A stretch of DNA of 64,000 nucleotides from an archaeon (GTDB lineage Archaea; Nanobdellota; Nanobdellia; Woesearchaeales; JBDRAZ01). A model generated the notes under the pieces. That model ran no database searches. It was not told where the DNA came from and worked only from the letters and a program-made list of their open reading frames with translations. Shown piece after piece: positions 15,322 to 64,000 of this stretch (position 1 is its first letter; each line of letters opens with the position of its first letter). The stretch lies in NCBI GenBank assembly GCA_043823195.1, contig JBDRAZ010000038.1, positions 3,592 to 67,591 on the forward strand, written 5' to 3'. Made by a program: the position numbers and the translations under genes.

Positions 15322-15382
15322 GTCCTAGCCATAGATTTATATAATCCAAAGTATACAACCTAAATGCTTAAAGGATATTAAT

Positions 15383-36967: not shown

Positions 36968-37179
36968 CAGTAGTGCGTATGCGACCCGACAGCGGTATTG
37001 CCTGATTTTGCAACAGTAACTACGCCCGCCTTAACGCTTTTAGAGGCAAGGGCCGCAGCAACGGCAGCCGTCCCGATGAATGCGCCGACCGTCACCATGG
37101 ATTGCTTTGATATCTTGCCCTTTTCTGACTTGACATATGCTGCAAGTTTCTTTTTGATTCTGGGCAGAGTAGTTCTCAA
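36967..37179 (-). CDS. 70-aa peptide encoded between the two radical SAM genes (candidate substrate/precursor)
   Basis: Sequence is MRTTLPRIKKKLAAYVKSEKGKISKQSMVTVGAFIGTAAVAAALASKSVKAGVVTVAKSGNTAVGSHTHY. Its stop overlaps the downstream radical SAM start and it is on the same strand as both radical SAM genes. Confidence 0.4.
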   Translation of the reverse strand: MRTTLPRIKKKLAAYVKSEKGKISKQSMVTVGAFIGTAAVAAALASKSVKAGVVTVAKSGNTAVGSHTHY

Positions 37180-37240
37180 ACTATTTCACTCCTTTTTTCC
37201 AACCTAAAACCGCTGCTTGAAATATTTAAATGTTTCCCTT

Positions 37241-43172: not shown

Positions 43173-46550
<3,378 letters not shown>

Positions 46551-48405: not shown

Positions 48406-49473
48406 CTATTTTCTCTCAATACCCAGTATGCTCAGGAAAAATGAGGAAAAGATTGTCTGCATTCCGATGATAAGCACTGTGAGATTTGTTATTGTGAGCG
48501 TGAATCCGGAAACCAGCAAGCCGGTAAGCAGAATCAGGCTTCCAATTATTATCCCTTTCTCGACAGAGATGTGCTTGTTAAGGAGGTCAATCCAGGGGTC
48601 ATGTTCACCCAGGTGAACAGAGGCATATGTTTTGGCAAATATTCCCAGCAAAAGAATCTGGTAGCCGCCGATTGCCGACAGGCTGAATATGAACGGGACA
48701 GGCAAATGCAGCAACCCATCAGACAGTGTGCTGTAGAGCAGCAATGAAAAAGCCAGGACAAGCAGCAGAAATCCCGGAATGATAAACAGATAATCCGGCG
48801 AGTACAGCAGCATAAACCTCAGGTGCTTCCAGCCATCCCGGAAGGAGTCCAGCTTTGACTCCCCAACACGGGGATAATATGATATCGGCACCTCGCATAC
48901 CCGCAGGTCTGCCTTTACTGCCTTAATTATCATCTCTGTTGCAAATTCCATCCCGGTTGTGTTCAGCTTAAGCCTGGCAAGCGCCTCTGCCTTGATTGCG
49001 CGCATGCCTGAGTGAACATCGCTCAGCCGTGATCCGAAGAGCAGGTTGGTTATGCCGGACAGGAGGGGATTTCCCAGATACCTATGCAGGAACAGCATTG
49101 CGCCTTTCTTGATATCGCCCTTCAGACGCGTGCCAACAACAAGATCACAGCCCTTTATGGCTTTAAGGAATTTTGGAATTTCATTAAAATCGTATGTATT
49201 GTCAGCATCCCCGTACAGAATGACGGTGCCCTTTGCGTGCCTGAACCCCTCCAGAAGCGCATTGCCATAGCCCTTGGTGTGCCTGACGACGGTTGCCCCA
49301 AGCTTACGCGCAATCCCTGCGGAATCATCATGCGATGAATCGGAGATAATTATCTCCCCGTTTATCTTCTCCCTGGCAAGCACTCCCTGTATCTTCTTTA
49401 TGCAAAGTCCTACAGTGGCCTCTTCATCCCTGCAGGGAAGTATGACTGAGAGGTACGGATTCATGAGGAACAT
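48406..49473 (-). CDS. GT2 glycosyltransferase, dolichyl/polyprenyl-phosphate sugar synthase-like, with C-terminal TM domain
   Basis: LSVILPCRDEEATV plus YGDADNTYD (DxD) identify a GT2 fold. The C-terminal third is hydrophobic. The gene is the last in the radical SAM array operon. Confidence 0.7.
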   Translation of the reverse strand: MFLMNPYLSVILPCRDEEATVGLCIKKIQGVLAREKINGEIIISDSSHDDSAGIARKLGATVVRHTKGYGNALLEGFRHAKGTVILYGDADNTYDFNEIPKFLKAIKGCDLVVGTRLKGDIKKGAMLFLHRYLGNPLLSGITNLLFGSRLSDVHSGMRAIKAEALARLKLNTTGMEFATEMIIKAVKADLRVCEVPISYYPRVGESKLDSFRDGWKHLRFMLLYSPDYLFIIPGFLLLVLAFSLLLYSTLSDGLLHLPVPFIFSLSAIGGYQILLLGIFAKTYASVHLGEHDPWIDLLNKHISVEKGIIIGSLILLTGLLVSGFTLTITNLTVLIIGMQTIFSSFFLSILGIERK

Positions 49474-49491
49474 CCTAGATGCAGAATCTAT

Positions 49492-50481
49492 TTAAATCCT
49501 TTCATCATGACGGCGCCTGTTGAAGATATCAACGAACTCAGGCAGGCAGTGCCGGCACTCGGGATAAAAATGCCCGGATTCAAGGCGTTTTCTAAAGGCC
49601 TGCATCCGCTCACCCACCCATAATTCCCTAAACGGCCTATCCCGGATATTTCCAATGACGTTTTCGTACATGCTTGCAAGTATGCAGCATGCAAGAACAT
49701 CGCCCCTTGAATTGACAAAGGCCATGTCCCCCGGGGCATAGCAGAATTCCGGAACATCATGCTCAAAGAGGCCGTGCCTGACCAGGGAGCCGATGTTGGA
49801 CGCTATTTTTTGCTCAGCCATTGATTTTTGTGCCTCAAGAAGGCACCTGCTGATTTCAGTCTCGGGCAGTCCCCGTAAGGAGAGCTGCCTGTTGGTTGAC
49901 CATTCCAGGAGCACCGAGAAATAGACAGATGATATGCCTGCGCGCCTTGCAATGCCTGCATAGCCTGCCAGGCTGGCCAGGTTTACCCTGGTGACCACGG
50001 CGCCAAGCCTGATAACGGGCTTTTCACTGGCCTGCCTTCTTTTCTCTTCAGAAAGGCTCTTAATTGCCGCATACACCATCCGAAAGACCCCTTTGCCGCG
50101 AATCCCGTCATTGTCTGCCTCGGTTGTGCCATCCAGCGAAAAACAGATGTCATCCAGCTGAATATCAACAACCGCTTTAATCAGGGAGCTGTCAAGCATC
50201 GTTGCGTTGCTTGTAAGTGAGGTGAAAAGGCCGAGGTCTTTGGACTTCCGAATAATCTCCAGGATGTCCTTTTTCATGAAGGGTTCACCGCCGCCGGTGA
50301 GGTCTGCTGATTTTACACCCATTGATCTGGCATCTTCCAGAAGGCTGAATATTTCTTCTTTTGTCAGCTCCTCACCCGCTTTCGCGTTGGGGTCGGTCTT
50401 CTTTTCCAGCCTCCAGCAGGTTTTGCATCTAAGATTACATGCATCTGTAGGGCTGATCATAAGCTTGTCAGGGCCCTTCAT
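49492..50481 (-). CDS. radical SAM/SPASM enzyme, array member A
   Basis: ISPTDACNLRCKTCW (CxxxCxxC) and LTGGGEPF are present. C-terminal ACCILAS...CRHC. Overlaps the start of B by 4 nt. Confidence 0.8.
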   Translation of the reverse strand: MKGPDKLMISPTDACNLRCKTCWRLEKKTDPNAKAGEELTKEEIFSLLEDARSMGVKSADLTGGGEPFMKKDILEIIRKSKDLGLFTSLTSNATMLDSSLIKAVVDIQLDDICFSLDGTTEADNDGIRGKGVFRMVYAAIKSLSEEKRRQASEKPVIRLGAVVTRVNLASLAGYAGIARRAGISSVYFSVLLEWSTNRQLSLRGLPETEISRCLLEAQKSMAEQKIASNIGSLVRHGLFEHDVPEFCYAPGDMAFVNSRGDVLACCILASMYENVIGNIRDRPFRELWVGERMQAFRKRLESGHFYPECRHCLPEFVDIFNRRRHDERI

Positions 50482-51548
50482 TTTTCAAGCTCCTTGCGAA
50501 TTTCAAGATTGTTTGTAACCAGTGTTGTGCAGCATTTCCTGCAGTAGTCGGACAGGCTGCTGTCAAGCATATCCTGCCTGCGTTTCTGAAAATACGGGCC
50601 GTACCAGATCTGTTCCAGGGTTCTATTCCTGATGTTCTCGGTGGCTGCCTCATCAAAGAAGCCGCATGGCCCGACCCTGCCATCCACCCTTATGCCCATC
50701 CTGTAGAACGGCTCAAAACAGGGCATGTTAACAAAGCCGGCCCTGCCTGTTGAAAGCACCTCTTTCATGCTGCCTGTTTTTTCAACAAGCCTTGTTTCAA
50801 AGAACCTGCGCAGATTTGTGGTGATTGCATATTTATCCGCGAGGCCCGCCGCTTTTGTGGCAATCCGGGTGAATTCATGCTGCTGAACGGGATTCAGCCT
50901 CAATGCCTCACCCGCTTCAGAATATGAAGTGACCGGCTCGATAAAGACTGCATCCGCACCTATATTCTTGGCCAGACTTATTATCTCAGGAACCTGCCCA
51001 TAGTTGCGGTTAACCAGGACAACACCAATCTCCAGATACGGTTTGCCGGATTTCTGCCTGCGGCTGCTGAAATGCCTGATGTTCTCAACAGCCCTCCTGA
51101 ATGACCCATTGACACCGGTCAGATAGTCATTGGTCTTGCCATCAGCCCCGTGGAGGCTGACCTTAATATGATCCCACCCCAATCCGACAAGGTCCTCAAT
51201 CTGTTTGTGCGTGAAGTTTGTGCCATTGGTGCAGAGGTAGCCCTGCATGCCGCGGGCTTTGACAAGCTTCATAATCCCCATAGTGTCTCGACGGACAGTC
51301 GCTTCACCGCCCCCGATCACCTTGAACTCCCCAACACCCAGTTTCGCGGCATCTTCGATTATTTCCTTGTATTTGCCCAAAGGCAGCTCTTCGAGATAAT
51401 CAATATTATCGGCACCCACCCTCCAGCAAAATCTGCATCGGTGGTTGCACCTGAGCGTAGGCGCTATCTCAATCCCCCAGGGAGGGGCACTATGACCCCC
51501 GGCCCAGGTCCTGAGGCGCCGGATTACCTCGTTCATGCCCGCCCCCAT
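50478..51548 (-). CDS. radical SAM/SPASM enzyme, array member B
   Basis: IEIAPTLRCNHRCRFCW. C-terminal PCFEPFY...GPCGFFD...IWYGPYF...YCRKCC. Confidence 0.8.
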   Translation of the reverse strand: MGAGMNEVIRRLRTWAGGHSAPPWGIEIAPTLRCNHRCRFCWRVGADNIDYLEELPLGKYKEIIEDAAKLGVGEFKVIGGGEATVRRDTMGIMKLVKARGMQGYLCTNGTNFTHKQIEDLVGLGWDHIKVSLHGADGKTNDYLTGVNGSFRRAVENIRHFSSRRQKSGKPYLEIGVVLVNRNYGQVPEIISLAKNIGADAVFIEPVTSYSEAGEALRLNPVQQHEFTRIATKAAGLADKYAITTNLRRFFETRLVEKTGSMKEVLSTGRAGFVNMPCFEPFYRMGIRVDGRVGPCGFFDEAATENIRNRTLEQIWYGPYFQKRRQDMLDSSLSDYCRKCCTTLVTNNLEIRKELEK

Positions 51549-52693
51549 ATGCGGTGCAGCGCCCGGCCAACACCAAAGGCGGCCACTGACTGCCCCAATT
51601 CAGCAACCTGATGGAATCTTCCTTTCGAGAGAAGAACCCTGAGACGCCTGTTCTCGTCCTGAATCCAGAGGCTGCACTTTGCACAGTCCGAATGCTTCCG
51701 GTTTTGTGATATCTGCAGCCTCATTTTGCTGAAGTACGGACCATACCAGATATCCTTAAGGCTTTTGGCCAGGATGTTGTCGGCATCAGGGTCGTAGATG
51801 TTGCAGCAGGGCTGCACAGATCCGTCCGGCCTCACAACCATTTTATGCCAAGGCTGGTAGCAGTAGTAATCCGAAAACCCGTGCGCCTGCCTGTCCGGAC
51901 CTGTCTCGATGTTTTCAGGATCATGTCTTCCTGAAGAGGGTCTTGCTGATGCATGCCGTGATAGGAAGCTGACATTTGTCGTTATCCTCTGATGATGCGC
52001 TGCCACAATGGCGGCATCTATCTCTTCGGGAAGCCTGTCTTTGTCGTCATCGTCGAGGGCCAACCTGCCTGTGTTTGGGTTAGCCACCAGCGGCTCAAAG
52101 TTCACCGAATCAGCGCCGTACTTTGCCCCCAGCAGTATCATTTCAGCAAGCTTGCTGCAGTTGTGCCTGTTCACTACCGTGTTTATTCCCAATGCGGGAC
52201 GTTTCCACCTAGGGTACCGGCAGAGTTTCAGGAGCGCTGAGCAGATTCTATCATAGGATCCCTGCACACCGCAGAGGTAATCATGCGTTCTGCTGTCGGG
52301 ACCTTCCAGTGATATGAATACGGCATCCCATCTGATACCGACCAAGCCGGGAACCATCCCTGACAGCAGCGTGCCATTGGTCGTTAGCTGGCCCCTCAGC
52401 CCCCTTTTTTTTATGTGCTGCATGAGGGGCAGGATTGCCTCCTTTCTGCAAAGGGGTTCTCCGTCACCTGACAGGTGAACCTGCCGCACGCCCATATCAG
52501 CCGCATCATCAATAATCTGCAGGCAGCGTCCGGTTGTGAGCTGGTCTTTGCCCTCCCTTGTAGTCCCCCGGAGGCTACCTTCGCAGAATTTGCATTCAAG
52601 GTTGCAGCGGTATGTGGGATTCAGGTCAAGAGCGACCGGACCGGCAGGGGTGCCGTTTTTCCATTTCCCAAGCCTGGTTACCTTGTGATACAT
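51533..52693 (-). CDS. radical SAM/SPASM enzyme, array member C
   Basis: LDLNPTYRCNLECKFCE. C-terminal YCYQPWH...QPCCNIYD...IWYGPYF...CAKCS. Start at internal MYHKV. Confidence 0.8.
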   Translation of the reverse strand: MYHKVTRLGKWKNGTPAGPVALDLNPTYRCNLECKFCEGSLRGTTREGKDQLTTGRCLQIIDDAADMGVRQVHLSGDGEPLCRKEAILPLMQHIKKRGLRGQLTTNGTLLSGMVPGLVGIRWDAVFISLEGPDSRTHDYLCGVQGSYDRICSALLKLCRYPRWKRPALGINTVVNRHNCSKLAEMILLGAKYGADSVNFEPLVANPNTGRLALDDDDKDRLPEEIDAAIVAAHHQRITTNVSFLSRHASARPSSGRHDPENIETGPDRQAHGFSDYYCYQPWHKMVVRPDGSVQPCCNIYDPDADNILAKSLKDIWYGPYFSKMRLQISQNRKHSDCAKCSLWIQDENRRLRVLLSKGRFHQVAELGQSVAAFGVGRALHRIWGRA

Positions 52694-53757
52694 AGCGATA
52701 ACTCCTTCTGTATGCCCTGGTTCTGGATTACCTGGCCTGCGTTGCAGATCCTGCAATAGTGCGGCAGGCTTCCGCCCATAATGCTTTGCCGGATGCTGCT
52801 GAAATGTGAGCCATACCAGATGGACCTGAGAGACTCGTTTTTGACATTCAGCTTTGGGTCGTCACAGATGCAGCAGGGCCCGGCATTCCCGTCAACCTTG
52901 ACTACAAGATGGTACCAGGGCTCGTAGCAGGGGATTGAGAGGAAGCCGCGCCCCCTGCAGGCCAATACCTCATCCATTCTGTTGCTGTTCTCGATGTGCT
53001 GTTTTGCGAGATGGCTGACATTTGTCGCTATCCCGTATCTGGCTGCCAGCCTGTGGGCTTCGTCCTGATGGGCAGAGACGCCTGTAATGTCGTCGCGCAA
53101 CTTCAGTTCATTGCCAATCTCTGAGTGGACGGTCAGGGGCTCAAAGCTTACAATCTCGCACCCAACTGAATGCGCAAACTCTATCATCTGCGAGAGCTTT
53201 CCGTAATTAACATTGGAAAGGACAGTATTGAATGCAACAACCGGGAATCTGGTTTTATTTGCTTTTTTAGCCTGGTCCAGGAGCTTCAGGCTGCGCTCAA
53301 CCTTGCGGAAAGTGCCGGTTCCCCGCAGGAAATCATTCGTTGCAGCATCCGGTCCGTCTATGCTAAAGGTAACCTTGTCCCACCTGATCCCAACAAGAGC
53401 AGATATGAGCTTTTCTGTAAAGAGCGTGCCATTTGTTGTCATAGAGCCATTCATGCCATGTTCCTTTATGCGCTTCAATAATGCCGGGGTGGCCCGCCGC
53501 ATGAGTGGCTCGCCGCCGCCGGTAATCTCCCAGTGCACTGCCCCCAGATCCTTCCCCTCATCAATAAGCTCAAGGAGCCTCTTGTCGCTCAGCTGATAGT
53601 GCCTGCTGTCAAGCCTGCCCTCAAACCGCTCATTCCTCTGCCAGCAGCTTTTGCACCTGAGGTTGCAGTAATCTGTGGGGCTGAGGTCTATTATGTACGG
53701 GGGTGCAAGTGTCCCCTTTGCGCATGATACCAGCCTATTGATTATTTCTGACTGCAT
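52678..53757 (-). CDS. radical SAM/SPASM enzyme, array member D
   Basis: IDLSPTDYCNLRCKSCW. C-terminal PCYEPWY...GPCCICDD...IWYGSHF...YCRICN. Confidence 0.8.
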   Translation of the reverse strand: MQSEIINRLVSCAKGTLAPPYIIDLSPTDYCNLRCKSCWQRNERFEGRLDSRHYQLSDKRLLELIDEGKDLGAVHWEITGGGEPLMRRATPALLKRIKEHGMNGSMTTNGTLFTEKLISALVGIRWDKVTFSIDGPDAATNDFLRGTGTFRKVERSLKLLDQAKKANKTRFPVVAFNTVLSNVNYGKLSQMIEFAHSVGCEIVSFEPLTVHSEIGNELKLRDDITGVSAHQDEAHRLAARYGIATNVSHLAKQHIENSNRMDEVLACRGRGFLSIPCYEPWYHLVVKVDGNAGPCCICDDPKLNVKNESLRSIWYGSHFSSIRQSIMGGSLPHYCRICNAGQVIQNQGIQKELSLCITR

Positions 53758-54838
53758 TTCTCAGCATACCCCTGATCTGCCTGTTGGACGCAACTGTCCC
53801 GGGATTGCACTGCCTGCAATAATCCAGCAATTCGCCCCTCAATAGCCGCTCCCGTACAAGGTTAAAGTGCCTGCCCTGCCAGATATCGGCCAATGATTTG
53901 TCATGAACATACTCGCCGCTTTCATCAAACATGCAGCACGGTCCGGCGCGCCCGTTTGGCCTTATAACCATGTTATGGAAAGGCTCATAGCAGGCCGCCG
54001 ACAGCAGGCCGCCCCCATCCTGCTGCTTGAGATCCCCCTCTATGACCTTGTCCATTTCATTGGTCTTGTCCACAACTTCGCAGCTGAGGTCTGCCAGGTT
54101 GTATTCCAGCCCCAGCCTGTCGCAGAGCGCAGCTGCTTTTGGCCTGAGCCTCTGAAACTCCGCCTGCTCATCTTTTGTCATCTTAAGGCGCTTGCCCAAA
54201 TCAGTAAACACCGAGACATTGACGATCGGCTCAAAGAATATGTTTGCCGCACCGATGGTGTGGGCAAGCTGCACCATCTCCACTATCTGTGCGTGGTTCC
54301 TGTTGCACACCACATAGTGTATGCATATCTTGGGAACTGCCATGCCGGACCTGCCCTTGAGCAGGGAAAACTGCCTGATTGCGCCAACGGTCTTGTCAAA
54401 GCAGCCCCGGTCGTTCCTGAGGTACTCGTGCGTCTCCCTGTCAGGAGAATCCAGGCTGAAGATGACCTCATCCCATCCTGATTCAATCATGGCCACGGCA
54501 TCGGTCTCCTGCAGGAGTGTGCCGTTGGTAATCAGTGTGCCACGCATTCCATGGCCCTTTATCTGCCGCATAATCTTAAGGAATGCCTCTTTGCGGCACA
54601 ACGGCTCACCCCCTCCGGTAACTGTAACCTCTTTAACCCCCATATCCGCCGCCTCATCGATAATGGCTGCGTACCTCTGGTCTGAAATCTCATTATCATA
54701 GCTGACCCTCTCGGTATCCTGCTGCCAGCAGAACCTGCAGTGAAGGTTGCACCGTTCAGTGGGATTGATCTGCAGCCTGACAGGTCCGGGCCTGGATCCC
54801 GGCCATCCTGCAAGGCGTTCAACTGTTGCATTCATCAT
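53735..54838 (-). CDS. radical SAM/SPASM enzyme, array member E
   Basis: VERLAGWPG...LQINPTERCNLHCRFCW. C-terminal ACYEPFH...GPCCMFDE...IWQGRHF...YCRQCN. Start at internal MMNATVERLAGW. Confidence 0.8.
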   Translation of the reverse strand: MMNATVERLAGWPGSRPGPVRLQINPTERCNLHCRFCWQQDTERVSYDNEISDQRYAAIIDEAADMGVKEVTVTGGGEPLCRKEAFLKIMRQIKGHGMRGTLITNGTLLQETDAVAMIESGWDEVIFSLDSPDRETHEYLRNDRGCFDKTVGAIRQFSLLKGRSGMAVPKICIHYVVCNRNHAQIVEMVQLAHTIGAANIFFEPIVNVSVFTDLGKRLKMTKDEQAEFQRLRPKAAALCDRLGLEYNLADLSCEVVDKTNEMDKVIEGDLKQQDGGGLLSAACYEPFHNMVIRPNGRAGPCCMFDESGEYVHDKSLADIWQGRHFNLVRERLLRGELLDYCRQCNPGTVASNRQIRGMLRNAVRNNQ

Positions 54839-56459
54839 GATTACTGCTGCACCCCCCAATGTAATTCCTGATATCCCTTTTCCTGTCAAAGATTGAATAA
54901 AGGTAAAAGATCCTGTAAAAGTGATTATGCGTGTTGTCAAATTGTGGATTAAACACCTGTTTTCTCATTTGCTCATATTGTCTGAAGGCGAGCCAGGCCT
55001 GTTGTTTCTTATCCTCCCATTTGGCGCCGTCCACTTCATCAAAGGCCAGACCCTCCGCCTGATCATCCTGCGTCTCTCTTATCTTTGTTATTCCATACTT
55101 TAAAGGATTGCTTGTGAGAAGGCTCTGAGTAAGATAGAACCTAGTGAGATAGAAGTAATCAATTTGCCTGCGGTTCTCAGCAAGGAATTGCATTGACAAG
55201 TCCCTGTCTTCTTGAGTCTCATGCGGCAGCCCGCAAACCATTTCCAGCTCGTTCCAGATATTAAGTTTATGAGAATGTTTCAGCAGGGCCGATGCCTGAG
55301 CCAGATTGACATTCTTGTTCAGGTATTTTTGCATTCGGGGAGATGCACATTCCAGACCGAATAGCAGCCTCCGTGCACCAGCAACGTATAGCTTTGACAA
55401 TATGGACTTATCCATTGAATTGAAGGCTGCGCAGTCGAACCACTGCACATTTACATCATTTTTAATCATCTGATCTGAAAACTCGGCCGCATAATTTTTT
55501 GTTGGGTTAACACTGGTATTGGTGAATATGAAATGATTGGCCCCATGCTTTTTTGACAGCATCTTCAGTTCTTCTGCAACGGCACCAGGATCCTTTGTGA
55601 GAAAAATATCTGACTGCGAATCTTTGCAGAATATGCATCTGTTTGGACATCCGAAGACAAAGTAATAGGGAAGGATCTGAATCTTCTTTGTTGACAACCC
55701 ATTCTCAGCAACATCCGTTGGTATGTACCGATAGAGTTCCAATGGAAGCCCGTCAAAATCCGGTACGGGGAATATAACTTCATCAGTATAGTATTCCGTC
55801 GGTATTTTCCGTGATTGAAGTACAGGATAGCCTGCCAAATCAAGGTGCCTGGCAATTTTTTCTTCGTTAAATACTATGCTAGGGAACAATTCCCTCTTTG
55901 ACAACTGCCTTGACTCGATGCAGTCAAGAAGCCTTATGAACTCGAAATGGTTAGTCAGGAAACAAAAGAAATCCACAAACGGCACGTCTTCAAACGGCAC
56001 ACCGGCAATAGTCCTATCATGATGGCCTCCGCCTGCGGAGATCAGAACATCATCGCGGTCTTTTAGTATTTTTGACATAACCATTGCCGCCCCGATTGAT
56101 GCAAATTTCCAGCAGTGCCCAAAGGAAAAAGCGACCATGTCATACCCCTTCGTTTTTGTCTTCTTAAGCATCTTTTCCGCATTCTGCTCCAGCTCGTCAT
56201 CACTGCCCCGCGTTATATAATCCGCTATTCTCGCCTTATCCTGAAACAGGGCCATGTCCACGCGCCTGTTATCAAGGCCGTGCAAATTATCATGGTACAC
56301 CTTCGCGTCGAGGTCATCCTGGTGTGCTGTGAAACCATGCTTCTCAAGGTATGACTTGATGACCGGGAGACTGATGAGCGGAAATTTTGGCGGCTCACGG
56401 GTGCTGTTTTCATCCTCAGCCGAATAGAATTCGGGAGAGTATATCAGTTTCAGCCTCAT
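54819..56459 (-). CDS. cobalamin-binding (class B) radical SAM enzyme, paralog 1
   Basis: N-terminal Rossmann-like B12-binding-type domain PLISLPVIKSYLEKHGF...ISAGGGHH. Central radical SAM motif YYFVFGCPNRCIFCKD. Start at MRLKLIYSPEF. Confidence 0.65.
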   Translation of the reverse strand: MRLKLIYSPEFYSAEDENSTREPPKFPLISLPVIKSYLEKHGFTAHQDDLDAKVYHDNLHGLDNRRVDMALFQDKARIADYITRGSDDELEQNAEKMLKKTKTKGYDMVAFSFGHCWKFASIGAAMVMSKILKDRDDVLISAGGGHHDRTIAGVPFEDVPFVDFFCFLTNHFEFIRLLDCIESRQLSKRELFPSIVFNEEKIARHLDLAGYPVLQSRKIPTEYYTDEVIFPVPDFDGLPLELYRYIPTDVAENGLSTKKIQILPYYFVFGCPNRCIFCKDSQSDIFLTKDPGAVAEELKMLSKKHGANHFIFTNTSVNPTKNYAAEFSDQMIKNDVNVQWFDCAAFNSMDKSILSKLYVAGARRLLFGLECASPRMQKYLNKNVNLAQASALLKHSHKLNIWNELEMVCGLPHETQEDRDLSMQFLAENRRQIDYFYLTRFYLTQSLLTSNPLKYGITKIRETQDDQAEGLAFDEVDGAKWEDKKQQAWLAFRQYEQMRKQVFNPQFDNTHNHFYRIFYLYSIFDRKRDIRNYIGGCSSNHDECNS

Positions 56460-56466
56460 TGGCAGA

Positions 56467-58053
56467 TCATAACCCCCATCCGTTTGCGGAAACATAATCC
56501 ATTATCTCGGATTTTGAGTCAAAAACAGTGTACAGATAAAAAAGCTTGTAAAAATGCATCGCAGATAAATCAAGGCCGGGGCTGATAACATCCCGCCTGA
56601 GCTGTTCATAGGTGCGATATGAGGCATCCTGCTGCATTTTCTTATCCTTCCATTTGAGGCCGTCAATCTCGTCAAAGGCCATGCCCTCGCCGTTTCCGGC
56701 GGGCCTTATGTTGGCAATTCCGTATCTGGCGGGATTCTGAAGCATCCTGCTGCCGGTGAGGTAAAATTTGGTCAGATAAAAAAAATTTATGGTCTGCTTG
56801 TTTCGCCTCAGGAAATCCAGCGAGGCTTTCAGGTCGCTGTCCTTTTCATGGGGCAGCCCGCAGATAACCTCAATCTCATTCCATATGCCGAGTTTGTGCG
56901 CCGCCGTCAGAACGGCCTGCGCATCAGGCAGGACAACGTTTTTCTCCAGGAATCCCTGCATTGCAGGGGATGCGCATTCCAGCCCGTAAACGAGGCGGCG
57001 CGCACCGGACTGGTGCAGTTTCGATAGCAGTTTTGCATCCAGATTATTGAATGTTGCGCAGTCAAACCAAAGCAGATCAAGGTTCTTGCGGATTATTGTG
57101 TCGGCAAAGTCAAGAGCGTGCCTGTATGTTGGATTAATGGAGGTATTGGAGAAGACAAAGCATCTTGTCCTGTACTTTCTGGAAAGGTATGTGAGGTCAT
57201 CTGCAACCTGCTCCGGGTCCTTGACAAAGAAGTGGTTTATGTGGGAGTCCTTGCAGAAAATGCATTTGTTCGGACAGCCATAAATGTGAAAGTAGGGCAG
57301 GACCAGAAGTTTTTTTTGGGAGATCCCGTTGTCAAGGATATCCTGCGGGACGTACCGGTAGAGGTCAAGAGGCAGCCCGTCAAAATCGGGCACGGGAAAA
57401 AGGACCTCCGGATCCTTATGCGTGGCTGGGTAGCCTTTTATTGTCTCCTTTTGATCCGGGGAAAATTCCCGGTTGAATATTATTTCTGAGCAAAGCTCCT
57501 TTTTTGGCATCCTGCCGTCCAGATAAAGGAGCAGCTTGCAGAACTCGTAGTGGTTTGTGAAGCAGATTATGTCGAAACATCCAGTCTTGGCTATCGGGAC
57601 GCCCGCTATCGATTCCTTAAAGAGAGCCCCGCCCAGGATAATGGGGATATCATATTTCTCCCTTATTATCCCTGACATGACAATTGCGGCGCCAAGGGGG
57701 GCCAGTGTCCAGCAACTGATCGGCGCACATGCGAAGATGTCATAGCCCTTCCAGTCAGTGAGGGAGAGTATACGCAACGCATGCTCTTCAAGCTGCTCAT
57801 CATTCCCGGTCCTTATGTAGCCGGCAATCCTGGCGGGATCGTCAAAAAGGCTCATGTCAACCGGATGCCCGGATTGCTTGCTGGAGTTGAACACCTTTAT
57901 GTCAAGGTCATCCTGCGAAACCTTAAACCCGTACTTCTCCAGAAAGGATTTTATGACCGGAAGACTGACCAGCGGCAGCCTCGCTGGCTCTTTAGGATAC
58001 CCTTCCTTTTTGTCTGTGCAGAATTCCGGCAGGTAGCAGATCTTAACCTTCAT
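56467..58053 (-). CDS. cobalamin-binding (class B) radical SAM enzyme, paralog 2
   Basis: Alignable to paralog 1 throughout (LPLVSLPVIKSFLEKYGF, PYFHIYGCPNKCIFCKD). Start at MKVKICYLPEF. Confidence 0.65.
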   Translation of the reverse strand: MKVKICYLPEFCTDKKEGYPKEPARLPLVSLPVIKSFLEKYGFKVSQDDLDIKVFNSSKQSGHPVDMSLFDDPARIAGYIRTGNDEQLEEHALRILSLTDWKGYDIFACAPISCWTLAPLGAAIVMSGIIREKYDIPIILGGALFKESIAGVPIAKTGCFDIICFTNHYEFCKLLLYLDGRMPKKELCSEIIFNREFSPDQKETIKGYPATHKDPEVLFPVPDFDGLPLDLYRYVPQDILDNGISQKKLLVLPYFHIYGCPNKCIFCKDSHINHFFVKDPEQVADDLTYLSRKYRTRCFVFSNTSINPTYRHALDFADTIIRKNLDLLWFDCATFNNLDAKLLSKLHQSGARRLVYGLECASPAMQGFLEKNVVLPDAQAVLTAAHKLGIWNEIEVICGLPHEKDSDLKASLDFLRRNKQTINFFYLTKFYLTGSRMLQNPARYGIANIRPAGNGEGMAFDEIDGLKWKDKKMQQDASYRTYEQLRRDVISPGLDLSAMHFYKLFYLYTVFDSKSEIMDYVSANGWGL

Positions 58054-59716
58054 AAGGATCGTCCCCCGGATGGCCCGGCAACGTTGATTTCCTGTATATT
58101 TCAACTGTTGCATCAGCCACATTAACGGCTGATATTTTTGTGAACAGATGCCGCTCTTTGTTAAATGCCTGGTGCATGAGCAGCATGGACTCCTCTTTAT
58201 CAGAATTGGCACTGCCGGGATTGACAGAATCCTGTATCAATACTATCTCAGCATCAGCTGCCATATCGGCGTATGCCTGATAATCCAGGATGCATGCACC
58301 GAGCCCGCATTGCCCGTAAGGCTCATGCATCCTGACAGTAAGGTTTCGCAAGGCAAATTCATCCCCTGCCCCGGTCCCAACATAATACTGCCACTGAGAC
58401 AGATGGTATATGCCTGAATCCAGGAACAGGCAGATATCGATCCCGAGATTTTCCAGGCCCCCCATGGCCTCTGCCAGGTAAGGGCTCACCTGGTCTGAGA
58501 CCACATTGGGATTGCTCCTGAACAATCCGTATGCCTCCCTATCGTGACAGGTCACTATAACACCTGCGAAAGGGTCAGAAACATGGTATGATGCCCAATA
58601 AACCTGGCCCAGGCCAACGGCAATAACGAGCAGAATGGCCGACTTCCTGAATTGTGGTTTCCTAATGTGCTGGATCATCAATGAGACCAGTACGGCAAAG
58701 GAAGGCAGGTAAGGAACAACGAATCTGGGACTCATCAGACCCGAGGCAGTTGACACCACAGTGAATATGAAGAACGATGACGTAAACCACAGATGGATCA
58801 GCATATACTTTCTGCGGAAAAGGAAAAACAGGCTCATCATCGACATAACAAAAAAGAGAGGGCCCAGCTGGCAGCAGAACATATGGTAAAGATAATCCGA
58901 AGAGACACGCAGCCAGGAGATAACCAGAGACTGGCCCCCGGCGCCGATCTCTGGCCCGTCCCTTTGCCCGCTGAATATCTCGATCCTGGCGGCTACAGTC
59001 ATAATGTGTGAAGGATACCAGAGAGAAGCCAGCAGCGCCATTATCAATGCGGCGAACGCCAGGTTTATCATTCGTTCACGCAAACGGCACATTCCCCTGT
59101 GTCCGGTGATGCGGGTGCATAGGAGAGAATAGAGCGCCGGCCCAATGATGAATAAGCCAAAACTCCACTTTGTCAGCAGACCGAGACCGCAGACGATTCC
59201 AAAAAAGGCAGAGTATTTGCGGTCAGAAAATCCCCGGGTTCTCAGCAGAACGCCGATGGACAGGGCCACCATTGCGGTTAATGCAAATTCGATCATGTAC
59301 AGCCTTGAGAATCCGATTATGGAATTGAATGCAGTCACGAGGAATGCCGCCAGCAATCCTGTTGCCCTGTCACGCAGCTGGAAACCGATGGAATATATGC
59401 CAAAGACCAGTACAAAAAGAAAGATTGCATTTGTCATGACCGCGACATCTTCACTGACACCGAAGAGCGCAAACATAACCTGGGTCGCGTAATACAGCAG
59501 GGGCGGATACTCAGTCAGATGGGCCGGGTACGGCTGCTGATCCGGCATATGATTAAACAGGAATGCACTGGCATAAAAATTACCCATCATGTCGCCGCAC
59601 AGCTCAGTTTTGTCATGCTCAAGAATGTAGTAGTTGTGCATGGCGTTAAATAGGACAATAAGCAGCAGTGCCAGAAGGGTCAGCCTCCGGCTATTGAGTA
59701 TGTTGTTTCCATGCAT
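58043..59716 (-). CDS. polytopic membrane glycosyltransferase, GT39/GT83-like (PMT_2 / ArnT-like, lipid-linked sugar donor dependent)
   Basis: Twelve or more TM helices. N-terminal YPPLLYYATQVMFALFG resembles the PMT_2 family. There is a large C-terminal soluble region. Confidence 0.55.
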   Translation of the reverse strand: MHGNNILNSRRLTLLALLLIVLFNAMHNYYILEHDKTELCGDMMGNFYASAFLFNHMPDQQPYPAHLTEYPPLLYYATQVMFALFGVSEDVAVMTNAIFLFVLVFGIYSIGFQLRDRATGLLAAFLVTAFNSIIGFSRLYMIEFALTAMVALSIGVLLRTRGFSDRKYSAFFGIVCGLGLLTKWSFGLFIIGPALYSLLCTRITGHRGMCRLRERMINLAFAALIMALLASLWYPSHIMTVAARIEIFSGQRDGPEIGAGGQSLVISWLRVSSDYLYHMFCCQLGPLFFVMSMMSLFFLFRRKYMLIHLWFTSSFFIFTVVSTASGLMSPRFVVPYLPSFAVLVSLMIQHIRKPQFRKSAILLVIAVGLGQVYWASYHVSDPFAGVIVTCHDREAYGLFRSNPNVVSDQVSPYLAEAMGGLENLGIDICLFLDSGIYHLSQWQYYVGTGAGDEFALRNLTVRMHEPYGQCGLGACILDYQAYADMAADAEIVLIQDSVNPGSANSDKEESMLLMHQAFNKERHLFTKISAVNVADATVEIYRKSTLPGHPGDDPYEG

Positions 59717-59736
59717 ATGATGCTCTTGGATCCGGC

Positions 59737-60816
59737 TTACAGATTGTCCTGCAACCGATGCATAATGGCATCTCTCAGTTTCTGGTTTTCGACAAATTCA
59801 TTTGCACCGCAGTTCCTGCAGTACTCAGGGAGCTTATGGTCGATGAGACGCTTCCGCGTATTGTTGTAGTAATCCCCGTACCAGATATCGCCAAGGGACT
59901 GCGTATGCAAAGAGGTGCCCTCATCGCCGAAAAGCCGGCAGCTGCCCACGATCCCGTTGGCCCTGACCGTGACCAGGTACCATGGCTCAAAACAGTGGGT
60001 TCCCAGGAAGCCATCCTGCCTGGCGCCCATGAGGTCCGTCATCTGGCTTAGCTCATTTGATTTGTCCATGAGCATGGCGTCCTGGTATTCCCCAAGGTTC
60101 GTGCGGATGCCGTACCTCATGCACTGTTTTATGTACTTCCTGACAAGCCCTGCAAACTCCTTTCTTTTTTCCTCATCCAGCGCCCACTTTTTTTCCTCAT
60201 TGTCATAGAGGATTATGGTCTGCACGTTGAGCAGGCAGCCGCCAAGCTCATGAAGAAGCCCGATGATTTCAGAGAACTGCGCATAATTGACGCTGTTTAT
60301 CACCGTATTGAAACCGATTTCCGGTCTGACGGCCCCCAGCCGGCCTTTCCATTTTTTTATCAGCCCAAGGGATCTGACTGCACGGTCAAATGCCCCGGGA
60401 AGCTGCACAATGTAATCGTGTGTGCCTGCAACCGGGCCATTGATGCTGACCCTGATTCTGTCCCAGCCCGCCTGCACCAGGCTTTCTGCCGCGGATTCAG
60501 TAAACAGTGTGCCGTTCGTGATAATGTCGCCCTCCATTCCAAGCCGCTTGATTCTTTCCATGACCCTGACCGCAGCATCACCGCGGATCATGGGCTCGCC
60601 GCCGCCGGACAGGAGCCAGTCCCTTACCCCCAGTTCTGCGGCCTCATCCACAAGATCAAGGAGGCGCTGATCGCTCAGCTCGTTTTTAAGGTCAACCCAG
60701 CCTTTCCGCTCATGGCTTCTCTGCCAGCAGAACCTGCATCTGAGGTTGCACCTGTTTGAGGTATCGAGGTGAATGCTTGACGGCCCGGGCCTATCACCAT
60801 GATGCCAGTCCAGCAT
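59737..60816 (-). CDS. radical SAM/SPASM enzyme, array member F
   Basis: IHLDTSNRCNLRCRFCW. C-terminal HCFEPWY...GSCRLFGD...IWYGDYY...YCRNCG. Start at internal MLDWHH. Confidence 0.8.
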   Translation of the reverse strand: MLDWHHGDRPGPSSIHLDTSNRCNLRCRFCWQRSHERKGWVDLKNELSDQRLLDLVDEAAELGVRDWLLSGGGEPMIRGDAAVRVMERIKRLGMEGDIITNGTLFTESAAESLVQAGWDRIRVSINGPVAGTHDYIVQLPGAFDRAVRSLGLIKKWKGRLGAVRPEIGFNTVINSVNYAQFSEIIGLLHELGGCLLNVQTIILYDNEEKKWALDEEKRKEFAGLVRKYIKQCMRYGIRTNLGEYQDAMLMDKSNELSQMTDLMGARQDGFLGTHCFEPWYLVTVRANGIVGSCRLFGDEGTSLHTQSLGDIWYGDYYNNTRKRLIDHKLPEYCRNCGANEFVENQKLRDAIMHRLQDNL

Positions 60817-60836
60817 CCGTTTCACTCTTTCTTCCA

Positions 60837-61928
60837 TCATCTTGCGCATCCCTTCAGTCCCTCTCTTAGCTCTCTCGTGGCCGATAGGGTCCAGGGATTG
60901 CACCGGGAACAGTCATCGGTTAATTTCCGGTCTGCAATTTCCTGACGTTTTCTGGTGAAATAATTGCCGTGCCAGACCTCGGCAAGGGACCTGCAGGCGA
61001 CTGAATCGCCTTTTTCCTGAAGCAGGAAACAGGGCTGGGCAGAGCCGTCTGCAAAAATCGAAATGTTATACCAGGGATGGAAACAGGGAATTGACCAGAA
61101 CTCCTGTGCCTGAAGATTGCCGGTGTCTGATATGAAGGTATCCTGCATTCTATTGGCGCTCTGGAAGAGGTCTGAATCAAGGAACATGGGAATGTTTGTG
61201 GAGACCTGGAGTTCCTCTGCTGCCGCCTGCGCTTTCTTCAGGTGAGCATATAAGCCCGGGACCTGCCGTGGGCCGAGCGCCAGTTTTTTTATCTTGCCCG
61301 ACCAGATGTTCATCGCATTGATAAGCACTTCATTGCAGCCGGTCTTAGAGGCAAATGTTATCAGATCCTCAATGTGATCATGGTTCCTGTTGCAGATGAC
61401 CGCATGGATGCATATTTGCGGCCGGTCCCTGCCCAGGGATTTCTTTGCCTCTGCGAGGCACGCTATGCCGTGCTTTACCCGCCTAAAGGTTCCCGGAACT
61501 CCTCTGAGGCTGTCGTGCGTCTGTTCGTCAGATGAGTCCAGGCTAATCGTGATCTTGTTCCAGCCGGCATCGACCAGCTGCATGGCCGTGTCCCTTGATA
61601 TAAAGGTCCCGTTTGTGATGCACTCACCTAAAAGCCCTGCCTTTTTGATATGCCCCATGATCTGAAGGGCATCGGGACGGAAGAGGGGCTCGCCGCCGCC
61701 GCAGATATGCCATTCCCTAACCCCCATTCCGGCACTTTCATCGATGAGAGACAGCCACCGCTCCAGAGGCAGCTCGTTTTCCCTTTTCAGGTCCTCTTCC
61801 CTGACAAGCGTCCTGGTAGGGCAGAACAGGCAGCTCAGGTTGCAGAAATTGGTTAGGTGAACCTGGATCTGAGTAGGCGATTGAGCTATGCCACCCCCCC
61901 ATCCGGCCAGCCTGGCCACACGTTCATC
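60837..61928 (-). CDS. radical SAM/SPASM enzyme, array member G
   Basis: VARLAGWGG...IQVHLTNFCNLSCLFCP. C-terminal PCFHPWY...QPCFLLQE...VWHGNYF...DCSRCN. Start at internal MDERVARLAGW. Confidence 0.8.
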   Translation of the reverse strand, partial: DERVARLAGWGGGIAQSPTQIQVHLTNFCNLSCLFCPTRTLVREEDLKRENELPLERWLSLIDESAGMGVREWHICGGGEPLFRPDALQIMGHIKKAGLLGECITNGTFISRDTAMQLVDAGWNKITISLDSSDEQTHDSLRGVPGTFRRVKHGIACLAEAKKSLGRDRPQICIHAVICNRNHDHIEDLITFASKTGCNEVLINAMNIWSGKIKKLALGPRQVPGLYAHLKKAQAAAEELQVSTNIPMFLDSDLFQSANRMQDTFISDTGNLQAQEFWSIPCFHPWYNISIFADGSAQPCFLLQEKGDSVACRSLAEVWHGNYFTRKRQEIADRKLTDDCSRCNPWTLSATRELREGLKGCAR

Positions 61929-61980
61929 CATTATGACCACCGGAGAACAAAGAACATAATTTAAATGTTGCTGTGATTCA

Positions 61981-62760
61981 CTAATGCAGGTATATGTTAT
62001 CGATATGGACCACGTTTGATTCGGGGCCGGCCTCGAATGCAAACATTGCACGGTTAATATCATCGTAATCCTGTTTTCCGTTCCCTATCGGATGGCCTTC
62101 CACCGGATACATGTCTTTGAGCGGAACCGTGACCAAATACCACTTGTTGCCCTCCAGCAGCCTCATGTTAACAAACCACCAGAAGTCCCCAATGACAGAG
62201 TTCCTGTCCCTGTCTTCGATGACAAAGGCCAGCAGCCTGGTGTCCTTTTCAGCCATGAATAAAAATGAGACATAGCTAAACTGACTCCAATCATGGGTTC
62301 CCGGATAATTCAGCCTGGCTGTATGAAACCCTGCACCAGTCCCATGGGAATAGCTAATCCTCAGGTGCCTTCCGCAGATGCCGCCGGTATCAACCGATGC
62401 TTCCATCCTGCTGTCCTCCTTTTCAAGCAGATAGGCCCTGAGATCGCCTTCATAATCCTCGAACAGGTAACCCGGCCCTTCCGCATCGCATGAGCCTGCC
62501 TCAGCGACTGTGCCGATCTCATGATACTGGCTGTTGACAGAGGGATCCTGACCGCTGATTTCATCAGTGCCGGTCACCTCAAAAACGGCCGGCTGGTCCA
62601 GAACATCAATGCGCCTTGTTATTGCGCCGGTAATGTCACCGACAGCAGATGTCCTGTAGAAAAGTATTCCTGCAGCAGTCAGGTTAAGGACTATCAATAC
62701 AATAAGAATCCAACTCCGAAGTGTTAGTTTCATTCCCCCGATCGGGATATTTTGTGGCAT
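61981..62760 (-). CDS. membrane-anchored hypothetical protein with extracytoplasmic beta-rich domain; first gene of the array operon
   Basis: N-terminal TM helix LRSWILIVLIVLNLTAAGILFY. The remainder is polar and aromatic-rich, possibly a carbohydrate-binding-like beta-sandwich. Confidence 0.45.
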   Translation of the reverse strand: MPQNIPIGGMKLTLRSWILIVLIVLNLTAAGILFYRTSAVGDITGAITRRIDVLDQPAVFEVTGTDEISGQDPSVNSQYHEIGTVAEAGSCDAEGPGYLFEDYEGDLRAYLLEKEDSRMEASVDTGGICGRHLRISYSHGTGAGFHTARLNYPGTHDWSQFSYVSFLFMAEKDTRLLAFVIEDRDRNSVIGDFWWFVNMRLLEGNKWYLVTVPLKDMYPVEGHPIGNGKQDYDDINRAMFAFEAGPESNVVHIDNIYLH

Positions 62761-63028
62761 TACTGCTATATAAAGGTTTCCATCGAAAATCCTGCTTCTG
62801 TTGTCCCGAAACTGCTAGACAACACGAAACTGCTAGACACTTATGAGCTCCTGCCATACTTCTGCTGGTGTTTTGTTGTTTAGGCTCAGGTGTGGCCTGT
62901 CTGTGTTGTAATGCATAATGAAGTCTTTTATGTTTTTGAACGTGATAGTTAAAACGTGATAGCACAATCGGAAATCCTGCTGAGACCTGCTTACGGCCGG
63001 GGCTGACGCCATCCCCGCGCCATATCCC

Positions 63029-64000
63029 TTAGCCCAGCCCTTTAAGTATCACGCCTGCAAGATTCTCTGCAATAAGCCGGTTTCCTTCTGTTGTTGCATG
63101 GCCGAAAGTACCTGCAAAACGGTCTATAAACAAATCATCGTATGAACAGTTGATAAGGGCGCTGTTGAAATTTGCCTCGTTAGATACGAGCATAACATCC
63201 TCATCATCCAAGATGCGCCTTACCGGATCAACGCTCAAAGTAGGATACTGCATGGCCACGTACCTGATCCCGCGTTCATTAAGAATCTGGTGCAGCATCC
63301 GGTAATGGTATGCAGTGATGTTCTCTTTTGAATCCGTGCGAGGAACAACCAGAGACAGGCCATGATTATGCAGATAATCTTCTACCTCACCCGCTGAAAC
63401 GCCCTGATTAAGCATGATTTCAGCTGCGAGGTGGTGAAAATCAACACAGTTAGGTGCGTATTGCGTAAAATCCAGGGACCAGTTAGGCATATAGCCTGGA
63501 TTGCTCTCAAGGTCCTGAGTCCTTGCAAATTCATAATATGCATATCTGGCGGTATCATTAATATTTAGGGCGTTAGTGAGAATTCTCCGAGCAGATGAAA
63601 ACCGACCCTGATTAGCGTACTCGGCAGCAAGAGCAATATGAAAATCGTACAGCTGGTCTTTCATGCCCCTTGGCATGGACCAATTATCAGATGACAGACC
63701 CTCTTGCGCCGGACCATATAATGACCTGACAATCTTGTCATCTATTAAACATGCATCATTCCCGGGGCGGGGAGGACTGATAAAGGAATATGTTTTGCCC
63801 TCAGAGAACCTGTTTAACCAAGACAAGTACAACCACACCGCCAATTTGTAAAGCCTGAAATCCTGCATGGCTAACATGGAATTGGTTTTTAAACTGCCTT
63901 CATATTTCAGCAGAACATGGGTGCGGTCGTTTACACCCATCATTGATACAACCAAATCAGGCTTGAAAGCATCAAGATTATCCCTGATTTCCTGCAGCAC
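63029..64000 (-). CDS. hypothetical protein, possibly SGNH/GDSL-like hydrolase with TPR-like region; N-terminus beyond window end
   Basis: The ORF is open to the window end. DLVVSMMGVNDRT resembles an SGNH block. Confidence 0.3.
   Translation of the reverse strand: MLQEIRDNLDAFKPDLVVSMMGVNDRTHVLLKYEGSLKTNSMLAMQDFRLYKLAVWLYLSWLNRFSEGKTYSFISPPRPGNDACLIDDKIVRSLYGPAQEGLSSDNWSMPRGMKDQLYDFHIALAAEYANQGRFSSARRILTNALNINDTARYAYYEFARTQDLESNPGYMPNWSLDFTQYAPNCVDFHHLAAEIMLNQGVSAGEVEDYLHNHGLSLVVPRTDSKENITAYHYRMLHQILNERGIRYVAMQYPTLSVDPVRRILDDEDVMLVSNEANFNSALINCSYDDLFIDRFAGTFGHATTEGNRLIAENLAGVILKGLG

Follow-up and report, generated by a model that had tools for sequence, protein, structure and literature searches.

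Which reaction is carried out by two adjacent radical S-adenosylmethionine (SAM) proteins that are encoded within an operon of glycosyltransferases and further radical SAM enzymes? The question is raised by a stretch of 64,000 nucleotides (the window) from a DPANN archaeon (assembly GCA_043823195.1, contig JBDRAZ010000038.1, positions 3,592 to 67,591), which carries gene A (56467–58053) and gene B (54819–56459) on its minus strand. Among the alkylations that class B-type radical SAM enzymes catalyse are some of the most difficult in biology, and a substrate is known for few of their subfamilies. An original prediction, made from the letters of the DNA, described A and B as tandem cobalamin-binding paralogs of the class B methyltransferases. 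We propose that they belong to an uncharacterised class B-type subfamily, and that their likeliest role is the radical tailoring of a surface glycoconjugate, perhaps by C-methylation. Taken as a whole, this is an explanation that we hold with about even confidence; its parts are considered separately below.

A and B are paralogs with a class B-type architecture

Gene A encodes 528 amino acids, starting from the ATG at position 58053 (MKVKICYLPE), and gene B encodes 546, starting (MRLKLIY) 7 nucleotides past the stop codon of A. A mechanically generated list of open reading frames (ORFs) places both starts further upstream; the homologues and the deposited proteins begin at the ATGs used here. 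The deposited proteins are MFH1849288.1 (A, which is also an exact match to the database sequence P0001) and MFH1849287.1 (B), and are annotated just as ‘radical SAM protein’ from ‘MAG: archaeon’, where MAG is a metagenome-assembled genome.

As originally described, the two proteins align end to end: BLASTP gives 538 bits (E = 0.0), with 48% identity and 69% positives over 537 columns, which is a similarity far beyond chance. Both A and B are closer to three other proteins, P0002, P0003 and P0005 (51–55% identity), than they are to each other, and a neighbour-joining tree places them on separate branches. The duplication is therefore old, and sequence comparison identifies A and B as long-diverged paralogs. 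They are consequently probably not redundant, which favours distinct roles over an effect of dosage.

The central CPN(R/K)CIFCKD motif that had been noted earlier is present in both proteins (GCPNKCIFCKDS in A and GCPNRCIFCKDS in B; consensus GCPN(K/R)CIFCKDS), and both exceed the gathering threshold of 29.5 bits for PF04055 (Radical_SAM), A with 40.3 bits and B with 39.7 bits. The predicted ligands of the [4Fe-4S] cluster, in a CxxxCxxC motif, are C260, C264 and C267 in A (57253–57276, minus strand, GCPNKCIFC) and C271, C275 and C278 in B (55626–55649, minus strand, GCPNRCIFC). The columns of this cysteine triad are invariant across an alignment of 29 homologous sequences, from which we also built the hidden Markov model (HMM) used below for profile searches and motif mapping.

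The full-length AlphaFold model of A has a pLDDT of 92 and a pTM of 0.91, and consists of a five-stranded Rossmann domain in which strands and helices alternate, followed by a radical SAM barrel and then a C-terminal domain. Compared with radical SAM structures it gives Foldseek E-values down to 3e-14, and has the partial TIM-barrel fold. Its best matches are AprD4, TsrM, MgmA, OxsB and TokK, with MiaB and RimO after these. On the basis of the alignments and the model, we consider it very likely that both A and B have a class B-type architecture and an active radical SAM core.

The N-terminal domain is related to B12-binding domains

The B12-binding-type Rossmann domain of A comprises residues 1–200 (57454–58053, minus strand) and is recognised from the domain model, Foldseek and hhalign; that of B comprises residues 1–211 (55827–56459, minus strand) and is recognised from alignments, with a sub-threshold match to PF02310. 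A profile check against PF02310 (B12-binding) together with PF04055, as had been suggested for these proteins, gave a divided result. Both proteins pass for PF04055, as described above; for PF02310 there is no Pfam match in A, and B reaches 13.8 bits (E = 0.053) against a cut-off of 32.1. Because PF02310 failed directly in A and B, tests at the level of the family, the profile and the fold were used instead. Among the 29 aligned homologues, 14 match PF02310 at E ≤ 0.01, the best with E = 1.2e-8.

A search of the Protein Data Bank (PDB) with a single sequence gave just a marginal match to AprD4, and a profile search was required. The 29-sequence profile matches TsrM with E = 1.1e-12, covering both the N-terminal domain and the core, and also matches TokK, OxsB and CysS; a profile of the N-terminal domain by itself matches solely TokK (E = 0.004) and TsrM (E = 0.25). 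When this domain profile was aligned using hhalign with canonical B12 radical SAM proteins (seven PF02310-positive proteins encoded by neighbouring genes at related loci), the result was a probability of 98.6% and E = 5.7e-16 over 148 columns. In the hhalign alignment, the segment of the A/B family at about residues 50–96 is an insertion relative to the canonical proteins; in A it corresponds to a helical insertion of ~45 residues after strand 2.

Modelled alone, the N-terminal domain of A has a pLDDT of 91. Foldseek searches with this domain return mostly cobalamin domains (MetH, CarH-like proteins, and the corrinoid proteins MttC, MtaC and MMCP), with weak E-values of 3e-3 to 6e-2 and with flavodoxin-like folds mixed in. 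Judged by profile comparison and predicted fold, the N-terminal domain is a genuine homologue of the B12-binding Rossmann domain. The domain proposed originally, which in A is invisible to Pfam, is thus borne out, and structure prediction returns the B12-binding-type fold whose absence had been named as grounds for abandoning the proposal.

Motifs for the cobalamin tail are partly replaced

Solved enzymes have three motifs that contact the cobalamin tail (PMC9204698). The first, Gly-x-Ser-x-Leu, follows strand 3: its Ser hydrogen-bonds the base, and its ‘Leu’ region lies under the cobalt. The second, Gly-Gly on strand 4, forms the pocket for the dimethylbenzimidazole base and ribose, and the third, Gly-Glu at the start of helix 5, makes two hydrogen bonds to the cobalamin tail and is found in OxsB, TsrM and TokK (PMC9204698). 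We mapped the state of these motifs on 199 family domains aligned to the 29-sequence HMM. Most of the wider family retains every one: the motif Ser is present in 193/199 domains, Gly-Gly in 194–195/199, and Gly-Glu in about 154/199.

In A and B, Gly-Gly is retained (G141-G142 of A, within IILGG; SAGG in B), and Gly-Glu is replaced by Asn-His in both (Asn167-His168 in A). The motif Ser is kept in B, where the region reads Ala-Phe-Ser-Phe-Gly (AFSFG); in A the region reads Ala-Cys-Ala-Pro-Ile, and the Ser has become Ala110, a substitution seen in 2/199 domains. Two of the three published tail motifs are thus changed in A, and one of the three in B. The loop after strand 1, which in the family is usually Pro-Pro-Leu-Gly (PPLG), reads LPLVS in A and FPLIS in B. 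The replaced residues are conserved within a subclade of seven sequences (A, B, P0002, P0003, P0005, P0045 and P0007), in which P27, L28, S30, W115 and H168 are invariant. We therefore consider that the site has been remodelled, rather than having undergone random decay. Trp115 of A, which has a counterpart in B in the loop after strand 3, is aligned in the HMM alignment with Trp76 of TokK, a residue that sits under the cobalt (PMC13331322); the alignment is weak (about 19 bits), and provides a lead only.

The changes in these motifs are relevant to a different reading, according to which A and B are independent of cobalamin, their Rossmann domain persisting, as in AprD4 or ArsL, as a relic that serves the structure or binds substrate, and they carry out a non-methylating step (dehydration, epimerisation, oxidation or C–C rearrangement) on the same intermediate. 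AprD4 is the top match both by profile (E = 9.7e-16) and by Foldseek, and a 2026 review states that AprD4 and ArsL homologues bind no cobalamin despite their Rossmann-related domains. The sequence match to AprD4 is, however, limited to the radical SAM core (profile positions 254–414), and the profile of the N-terminal domain reaches TokK and TsrM, not AprD4. Models for ArsL and AprD4 are matched by 14/29 and 11/29 family members, respectively, all weakly. The case for independence from cobalamin, and against cobalamin binding, is further strengthened by the replacement of Gly-Glu in both proteins and of Ser in A, and by the failure of PF02310 to detect A. Of the proteins of the window that were scanned against Pfam, none was found to belong to cobalamin uptake, salvage or synthesis. 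The elongation factor EF-2 groups the host with Woesearchaeota/Nanoarchaeota (70–75% identity), and thus with the DPANN archaea, which are generally unable to make cobamides. Against this, the Gly-Gly pocket motif is retained in A and B, the Pro-Leu-x-Ser, Trp115 and Asn-His residues are conserved in the subclade in the manner of a remodelled site and not a decayed one, and most of the wider family keeps its motifs intact. Weighing these points, we regard independence from cobalamin as rather unlikely, and binding of cobalamin by A and B, as predicted from their sequences and models, as evenly poised. The description of the pair as ‘cobalamin-binding’ is not supported as it was originally worded, given the failure of PF02310, the replacement of Gly-Glu, the replacement of Ser in A, and AprD4 as the top structural match.

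A bolder idea, which we consider quite improbable, is that the three loops in contact with the tail and lower face of cobalamin have been rebuilt in concert in the A/B subclade. These enzymes might then use a different corrinoid, for example one with another lower base or a tail-less cobinamide, scavenged by a DPANN cell that is auxotrophic for cobamides; or else the domain may have been re-purposed for another cofactor. Either way, A and B would belong to an as yet undescribed pathway in which nine radical SAM enzymes, a dolichyl-phosphate (Dol-P)-sugar synthase and a GT-C glycosyltransferase build a heavily radical-tailored surface glycoconjugate. If this is true, relatives that have two to four fused modules (described below) would be multi-site tailoring machines. 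The altered tail motifs of A and B in any case provide a natural test of which motifs cobalamin binding needs.

The family is large and has no curated model

A word-indexed homologue search found just 36 relatives and suggested a tiny family. This suggestion was rejected as an artefact of the sensitivity of that search, since an exhaustive profile search found far more. It yielded 13,321 cluster representatives with E ≤ 1e-30; those with E < 1e-117 number at least 150, most of them full-length. The family spans DPANN archaea, Thermodesulfobacteriota and Omnitrophota. Among GTDB species representatives, full-length relatives of the subclade occur only in a Thermodesulfobacteriota MAG (at two loci) and a Nanoarchaeota MAG; a search for loci using the seven-sequence profile gave mostly generic matches to the radical SAM core, mainly in Planctomycetota, and full-length matches only at three loci (L011–L013). 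Our literature search found no description of the A/B family or of this type of cluster.

We compared the family with the NCBIfam class B models ApyD, TIGR03975, PhpK, HpnJ, BchE, ladderane B12 radical SAM, Sden_1168 and BzaD, which have cut-offs of 282–750 bits. No curated NCBIfam cut-off is passed by A or B, the best score being 71 bits against 750 for ApyD. All 29 members match PhpK, TIGR03975, ApyD, BchE, ladderane B12 radical SAM, HpnJ and Sden_1168, with best E-values of 1e-26 to 1e-38 and scores that are far below the cut-offs. Several of these results weigh against a methyltransferase. Models for methylases (PhpK, TIGR03975) and for non-methylases (BchE, HpnJ) score alike, and no curated methylase family covers A and B; nor does any sequence signature separate methylases from members of the BchE, HpnJ or OxsB type. 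Assignment to a BchE-like non-methylating enzyme, which had been named as the outcome that would overturn the original prediction, is likewise not obtained, all the NCBIfam matches being far below cut-off. Of the original assignment to the class B methyltransferases, the class B architecture is supported; methyltransferase activity is not supported as stated, the family being equidistant from methylases and non-methylases. We put C-methyltransferase activity somewhat short of an even chance.

The A/B group is thus an unnamed subfamily within the group of B12-domain radical SAM proteins, enzymes that are very numerous and mostly uncharacterised. It has no curated model, and its members are annotated as ‘radical SAM protein’ only.

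Several members are fused to other domains. P0108 has a C-terminal glycosyltransferase family 2 (GT2) domain (PF00535, E = 1.9e-34) after the module that it shares with A and B. This domain has 22% identity to the GT2 protein of the operon described below (E = 5e-4), a generic similarity, so that the fusion indicates a general link to glycans and not a specific one. Tetratricopeptide (TPR) repeats are found at the N- or C-terminus of many members (P0078, P0081, P0096, P0067, P0072, P0127, P0139, P0105 and P0108). Two to four modules per chain are present in P0037–P0039, and P0041 (1,820 residues) starts with a radical SAM/SPASM module, which is followed by three family modules; its 90% cluster includes proteins from Candidatus Omnitrophota, for example MDD5245771.1. 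Chains of 1,500–2,331 residues in which the B12-domain/radical SAM module is repeated three or four times in tandem were seen in P0037, P0038, P0039, P0041, P0055, P0065, P0070 and P0074.

The operon and related loci

A and B lie in an operon (48406–62760, minus strand) whose genes are co-directional, overlapping and tightly packed. In the 5′ to 3′ direction, it encodes a CBM_11-like protein, two SPASM proteins, PMT_2, A, B, five SPASM proteins and GT2. The first gene (61981–62760) encodes a protein of 259 amino acids that is anchored in the membrane by its N-terminus and has a region weakly resembling CBM_11 (PF03425, E = 5.9e-4, below the cut-off). It is followed by two radical SAM/SPASM genes (60837–62063 and 59737–60903, both with PF04055 and PF13186) and by PMT_2 (58043–59716; PF13231, E = 4.8e-11), a GT39/ArnT-like membrane glycosyltransferase of the GT-C type, for which no sequence relative was found in the PDB. 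The stop codon of PMT_2 overlaps the start of A by 11 nucleotides, and B in turn overlaps at its 3′ end with the radical SAM/SPASM ORF that follows (53735–54940). The placing of A and B between a GT39-like transferase and SPASM enzymes in the original prediction is thus correct, with PMT_2 upstream and SPASM genes from 54940 downstream. The remaining radical SAM/SPASM genes are 52678–53757, 51533–52756, 50478–51548 and 49492–50481; all five of the downstream genes match PF04055 and PF13186 except 52678–53757, which was assigned by reading its motifs (CNLRCKSC and C-terminal Cys motifs). The last gene (48406–49473; PF00535, E = 1.7e-18) encodes the GT2 protein, which has C-terminal membrane segments and resembles AglJ and dolichyl-phosphate hexose transferases (TIGR04182, 1.4e-40, and NF041391, 2.8e-34, both below the cut-offs). 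All of these genes are on the minus strand. A scan of the region for promoters and terminators gave a signal at the level of shuffled sequence; the consensus used is bacterial, and the host is archaeal.

Upstream of the operon, the gene at 63029–64000 (minus strand) has a marginal GDSL match (E = 0.0036, below the cut-off). It may be a diverged GDSL/SGNH partner, as GDSL/SGNH genes accompany the family at L001, L008 and L012. Between this gene and the operon lies the sole sizeable intergenic gap of the region (62761–63028). It contains an ORF of 59 amino acids (62833–63012, minus strand) ending ...YNTDRPHLSLNNKTPAEVWQELISV, which by reading alone resembles the remnant of a DDE (rve-type) transposase/integrase C-terminus.

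In archaea as well as in bacteria, family members recur beside PMT_2, GDSL/SGNH and other radical SAM genes. L001 contains five SPASM genes, two PMT_2, GDSL hydrolases, a GH113 protein and two canonical B12 radical SAM genes, and L003 contains ten SPASM genes, three family members (two of them adjacent), two PMT_2 and one TPR fusion. Six SPASM genes and a GT1 gene are present at L005, and three family members with GDSL hydrolases at L008. A classical glycan cluster is found at L009, encoding GT4, DegT, WbqC, PIG-L, NeuB and PglD-like proteins. The bacterial locus L012 has three PMT_2 genes, two GDSL genes and a polysaccharide deacetylase; a single PMT_2 gene is found at L010, and PMT_2 together with several B12 radical SAM genes at L007. 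PMT_2 thus recurs by family members at L001, L003, L007, L010 and L012.

L007, which is from Woesearchaeota (MAG GCA_043815525.1), also carries a corrinoid methyl-transfer set beside its family members, in a DPANN genome, which counts in favour of the use of cobalamin. At 11741–16636, a RACo-type activator, a methyltransferase of the URO-D family and a B12-binding corrinoid protein lie among B12-domain radical SAM genes and PMT_2.

What do A and B modify?

The presence of the GT-C and GT2 glycosyltransferases and the CBM-like protein in the window, of glycan genes at related loci, and of a GT2 fusion within the family are the reasons for proposing a surface glycoconjugate as the substrate. We regard a role in the tailoring of such a glycoconjugate as about as probable as all other roles together. 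Two other classes of substrate have to be considered.

The first is a ribosomal peptide or a surface protein, which A, B and the SPASM enzymes would modify either as in a ribosomally synthesised and post-translationally modified peptide (RiPP) or by protein C-methylation (compare PoyB/PoyC-type enzymes and the MCR methylases), and which PMT_2 would then O-glycosylate. This is a serious rival, and one compatible with methylation. The top NCBIfam matches of A and B, ApyD and TIGR03975, are RiPP enzymes, the latter matching 29/29 members with a best E of 1.7e-36; all the RiPP-family scores are, however, far below their cut-offs. SPASM enzymes are classic peptide maturases, and when one SPASM paralog of the operon was compared with the PDB, its relatives included PqqE, SuiB, SkfB and anSME. 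The same paralog also matches the sugar enzymes BlsE and BtrN and, weakly, the lipid enzyme GDGT-MAS, so that its relatives act on peptides, sugars, lipids and cofactors alike and do not discriminate between substrates. The listed SPASM ORFs have 15 to about 75 residues before the Cys motif, and fewer if internal Met starts are used, which is short for a typical RiPP recognition domain. The TPR repeats fused to many members, being a protein-binding module, fit a peptide or protein substrate equally well, as do the SPASM partners, and PMT_2 is named after protein O-mannosyltransferases. On the other hand, no precursor-like small ORF was found in or beside the operon, where the sole sizeable gap holds the transposase remnant, and a carbohydrate is favoured by the GT2 fusion, by the occurrence of the family in a glycan cluster, and by neighbours that encode GDSL proteins, a deacetylase and GH113. 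We judge a peptide or protein substrate to be unlikely on balance.

The second is an isoprenoid lipid, either an archaeal membrane lipid or the dolichol carrier, which A and B would methylate or otherwise alter. Weak NCBIfam matches to the ladderane-lipid B12 radical SAM protein and the hopanoid enzyme HpnJ point in this direction, as do the weak match of the SPASM paralog to the tetraether synthase GDGT-MAS and a UbiA prenyltransferase elsewhere in the window (18475–19365). The scores for lipid families are nevertheless all far below cut-off, the operon is without a lipid-synthesis gene, and the same neighbours accompany the family in bacteria (Thermodesulfobacteriota and Omnitrophota), which are without archaeal lipids. 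A lipid substrate thus appears very unlikely. As regards the analogy drawn originally with methylations of archaeal lipids and sugars, the context points to a glycoconjugate; membrane lipids are a less likely target than glycan.

Returning to a sugar or glycoconjugate, we suggest that SAM would be reductively cleaved at the [4Fe-4S] cluster of each enzyme, and that, in a sugar or glycoconjugate intermediate, the resulting 5′-deoxyadenosyl radical would take a hydrogen from a carbon that is not activated. The likeliest substrate would be a polyprenyl-phosphate-linked sugar produced by GT2, and later transferred by the GT-C enzyme. The substrate radical would then be quenched, most likely by a methyl group from methylcobalamin held in the N-terminal domain, as in TokK, GenK and Fom3. 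A and B probably work at different positions or at different steps. In such a pathway, the polyprenyl-phosphate sugar made by GT2, or a related intermediate, would be altered in the cytoplasm by the radical SAM enzymes before being transferred outside the cell by the GT-C enzyme. The original idea of a methylation step in the same pathway is upheld as regards the operon shared with glycosyltransferase and SPASM genes; the methylation itself is only inferred.

If the substrate is indeed a surface glycoconjugate, this would point to radical chemistry on the cell-surface sugars of ultra-small, host-dependent microbes, and the operon would be a defined gene set for heterologous reconstitution. Three features make the case concrete and open to testing: the conserved linkage to GT-C, GDSL and SPASM genes, the fusion of several modules in one chain, and the remodelling of the cobalamin motifs.

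Other features of the window

About 10 kb from the operon is a second small group (34783–38602), composed of a GT1 glycosyltransferase (34783–36009, plus strand) and two radical SAM genes on the minus strand, one of which has a weak SPASM match (35939–36967) and the other of which is a further radical SAM protein (37241–38602).

The stretch from 6000 to 17642 has a low GC content (0.32–0.42, compared with about 0.50 elsewhere) and is bounded by a gene of the phage integrase family (16371–17642, minus strand). It contains a PD-(D/E)XK nuclease (10770–11627), an M48 peptidase (12576–13781) and several ORFs without a Pfam match, and is probably an integrated mobile element. No tRNA genes were found in the window by ARAGORN.

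Two gene models may need checking. The phosphoglycerate kinase (PGK) ORF (40382–41995, minus strand) is long at 537 amino acids, and its match to PGK falls into two stretches, so that an insertion or a wrongly placed start codon is suspected. Next to it, the ORF resembling glyceraldehyde-3-phosphate dehydrogenase (GAPDH) (43442–44167, minus strand; 241 amino acids) looks short, and ends at the start of an ORF resembling PEP (phosphoenolpyruvate) synthase.

Comparison with known systems

The C-methylases of the TokK/ThnK/CysS type (PDB 7kdx/7kdy and 9n1b) have the same order of domains as A and B, namely Rossmann, radical SAM and C-terminal. TokK is the sole significant PDB match of the N-terminal domain profile; Gly-Gly is common to both, and the Trp that follows strand 3 in the subclade aligns with its Trp76. 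The identity in the fold alignment is about 12%. A and B differ from TokK in lacking its Gly-Glu (GEGE) motif and in having the insertion of ~45 helical residues after strand 2, and no carbapenem or antibiotic genes are found near them. TsrM (PDB 6wte/6wtf), a cobalamin-dependent tryptophan C2-methyltransferase, is matched by the profile over the N-terminal domain and core and is the second-best match by fold, with an identity of about 14%. It carries out a non-radical methyl transfer, with Arg69 under the cobalt (PMC13331322), and A and B have no equivalent of this Arg.

AprD4 (PDB 6fd2) is the radical SAM 1,2-diol dehydratase in the biosynthesis of apramycin. Its substrate, paromamine, is a sugar, and, like A and B, it has a Rossmann-related N-terminal domain before the core. 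It does not bind cobalamin (2026 review), and its match to A and B is in the radical SAM core only; against the AprD4 model NF033070, B scores 18.1 bits compared with a cut-off of 500, and A has no match at E ≤ 0.01. The B12 radical SAM enzymes of RiPP maturation, TIGR03975 and ApyD, align from the end of the N-terminal domain (about residue 122) into the core (residues 122–418 in A), and both models are matched by 29/29 members. The scores are 43–71 bits against cut-offs of 282–750, and no precursor peptide or other RiPP genes are present beside A and B.

Finally, class B enzymes include the sugar and small-molecule methylases GenK, GenD1, Fom3 and MoeK5 and the hopanoid enzyme HpnJ (PMC9204698). 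They belong to bacterial secondary-metabolite or hopanoid clusters, not to GT-C/SPASM operons, and the HpnJ model matches A and B weakly and below threshold (E = 7e-13 and 3e-14). These enzymes nevertheless provide a precedent for the tailoring of sugars and glycolipids by enzymes of the class B type.

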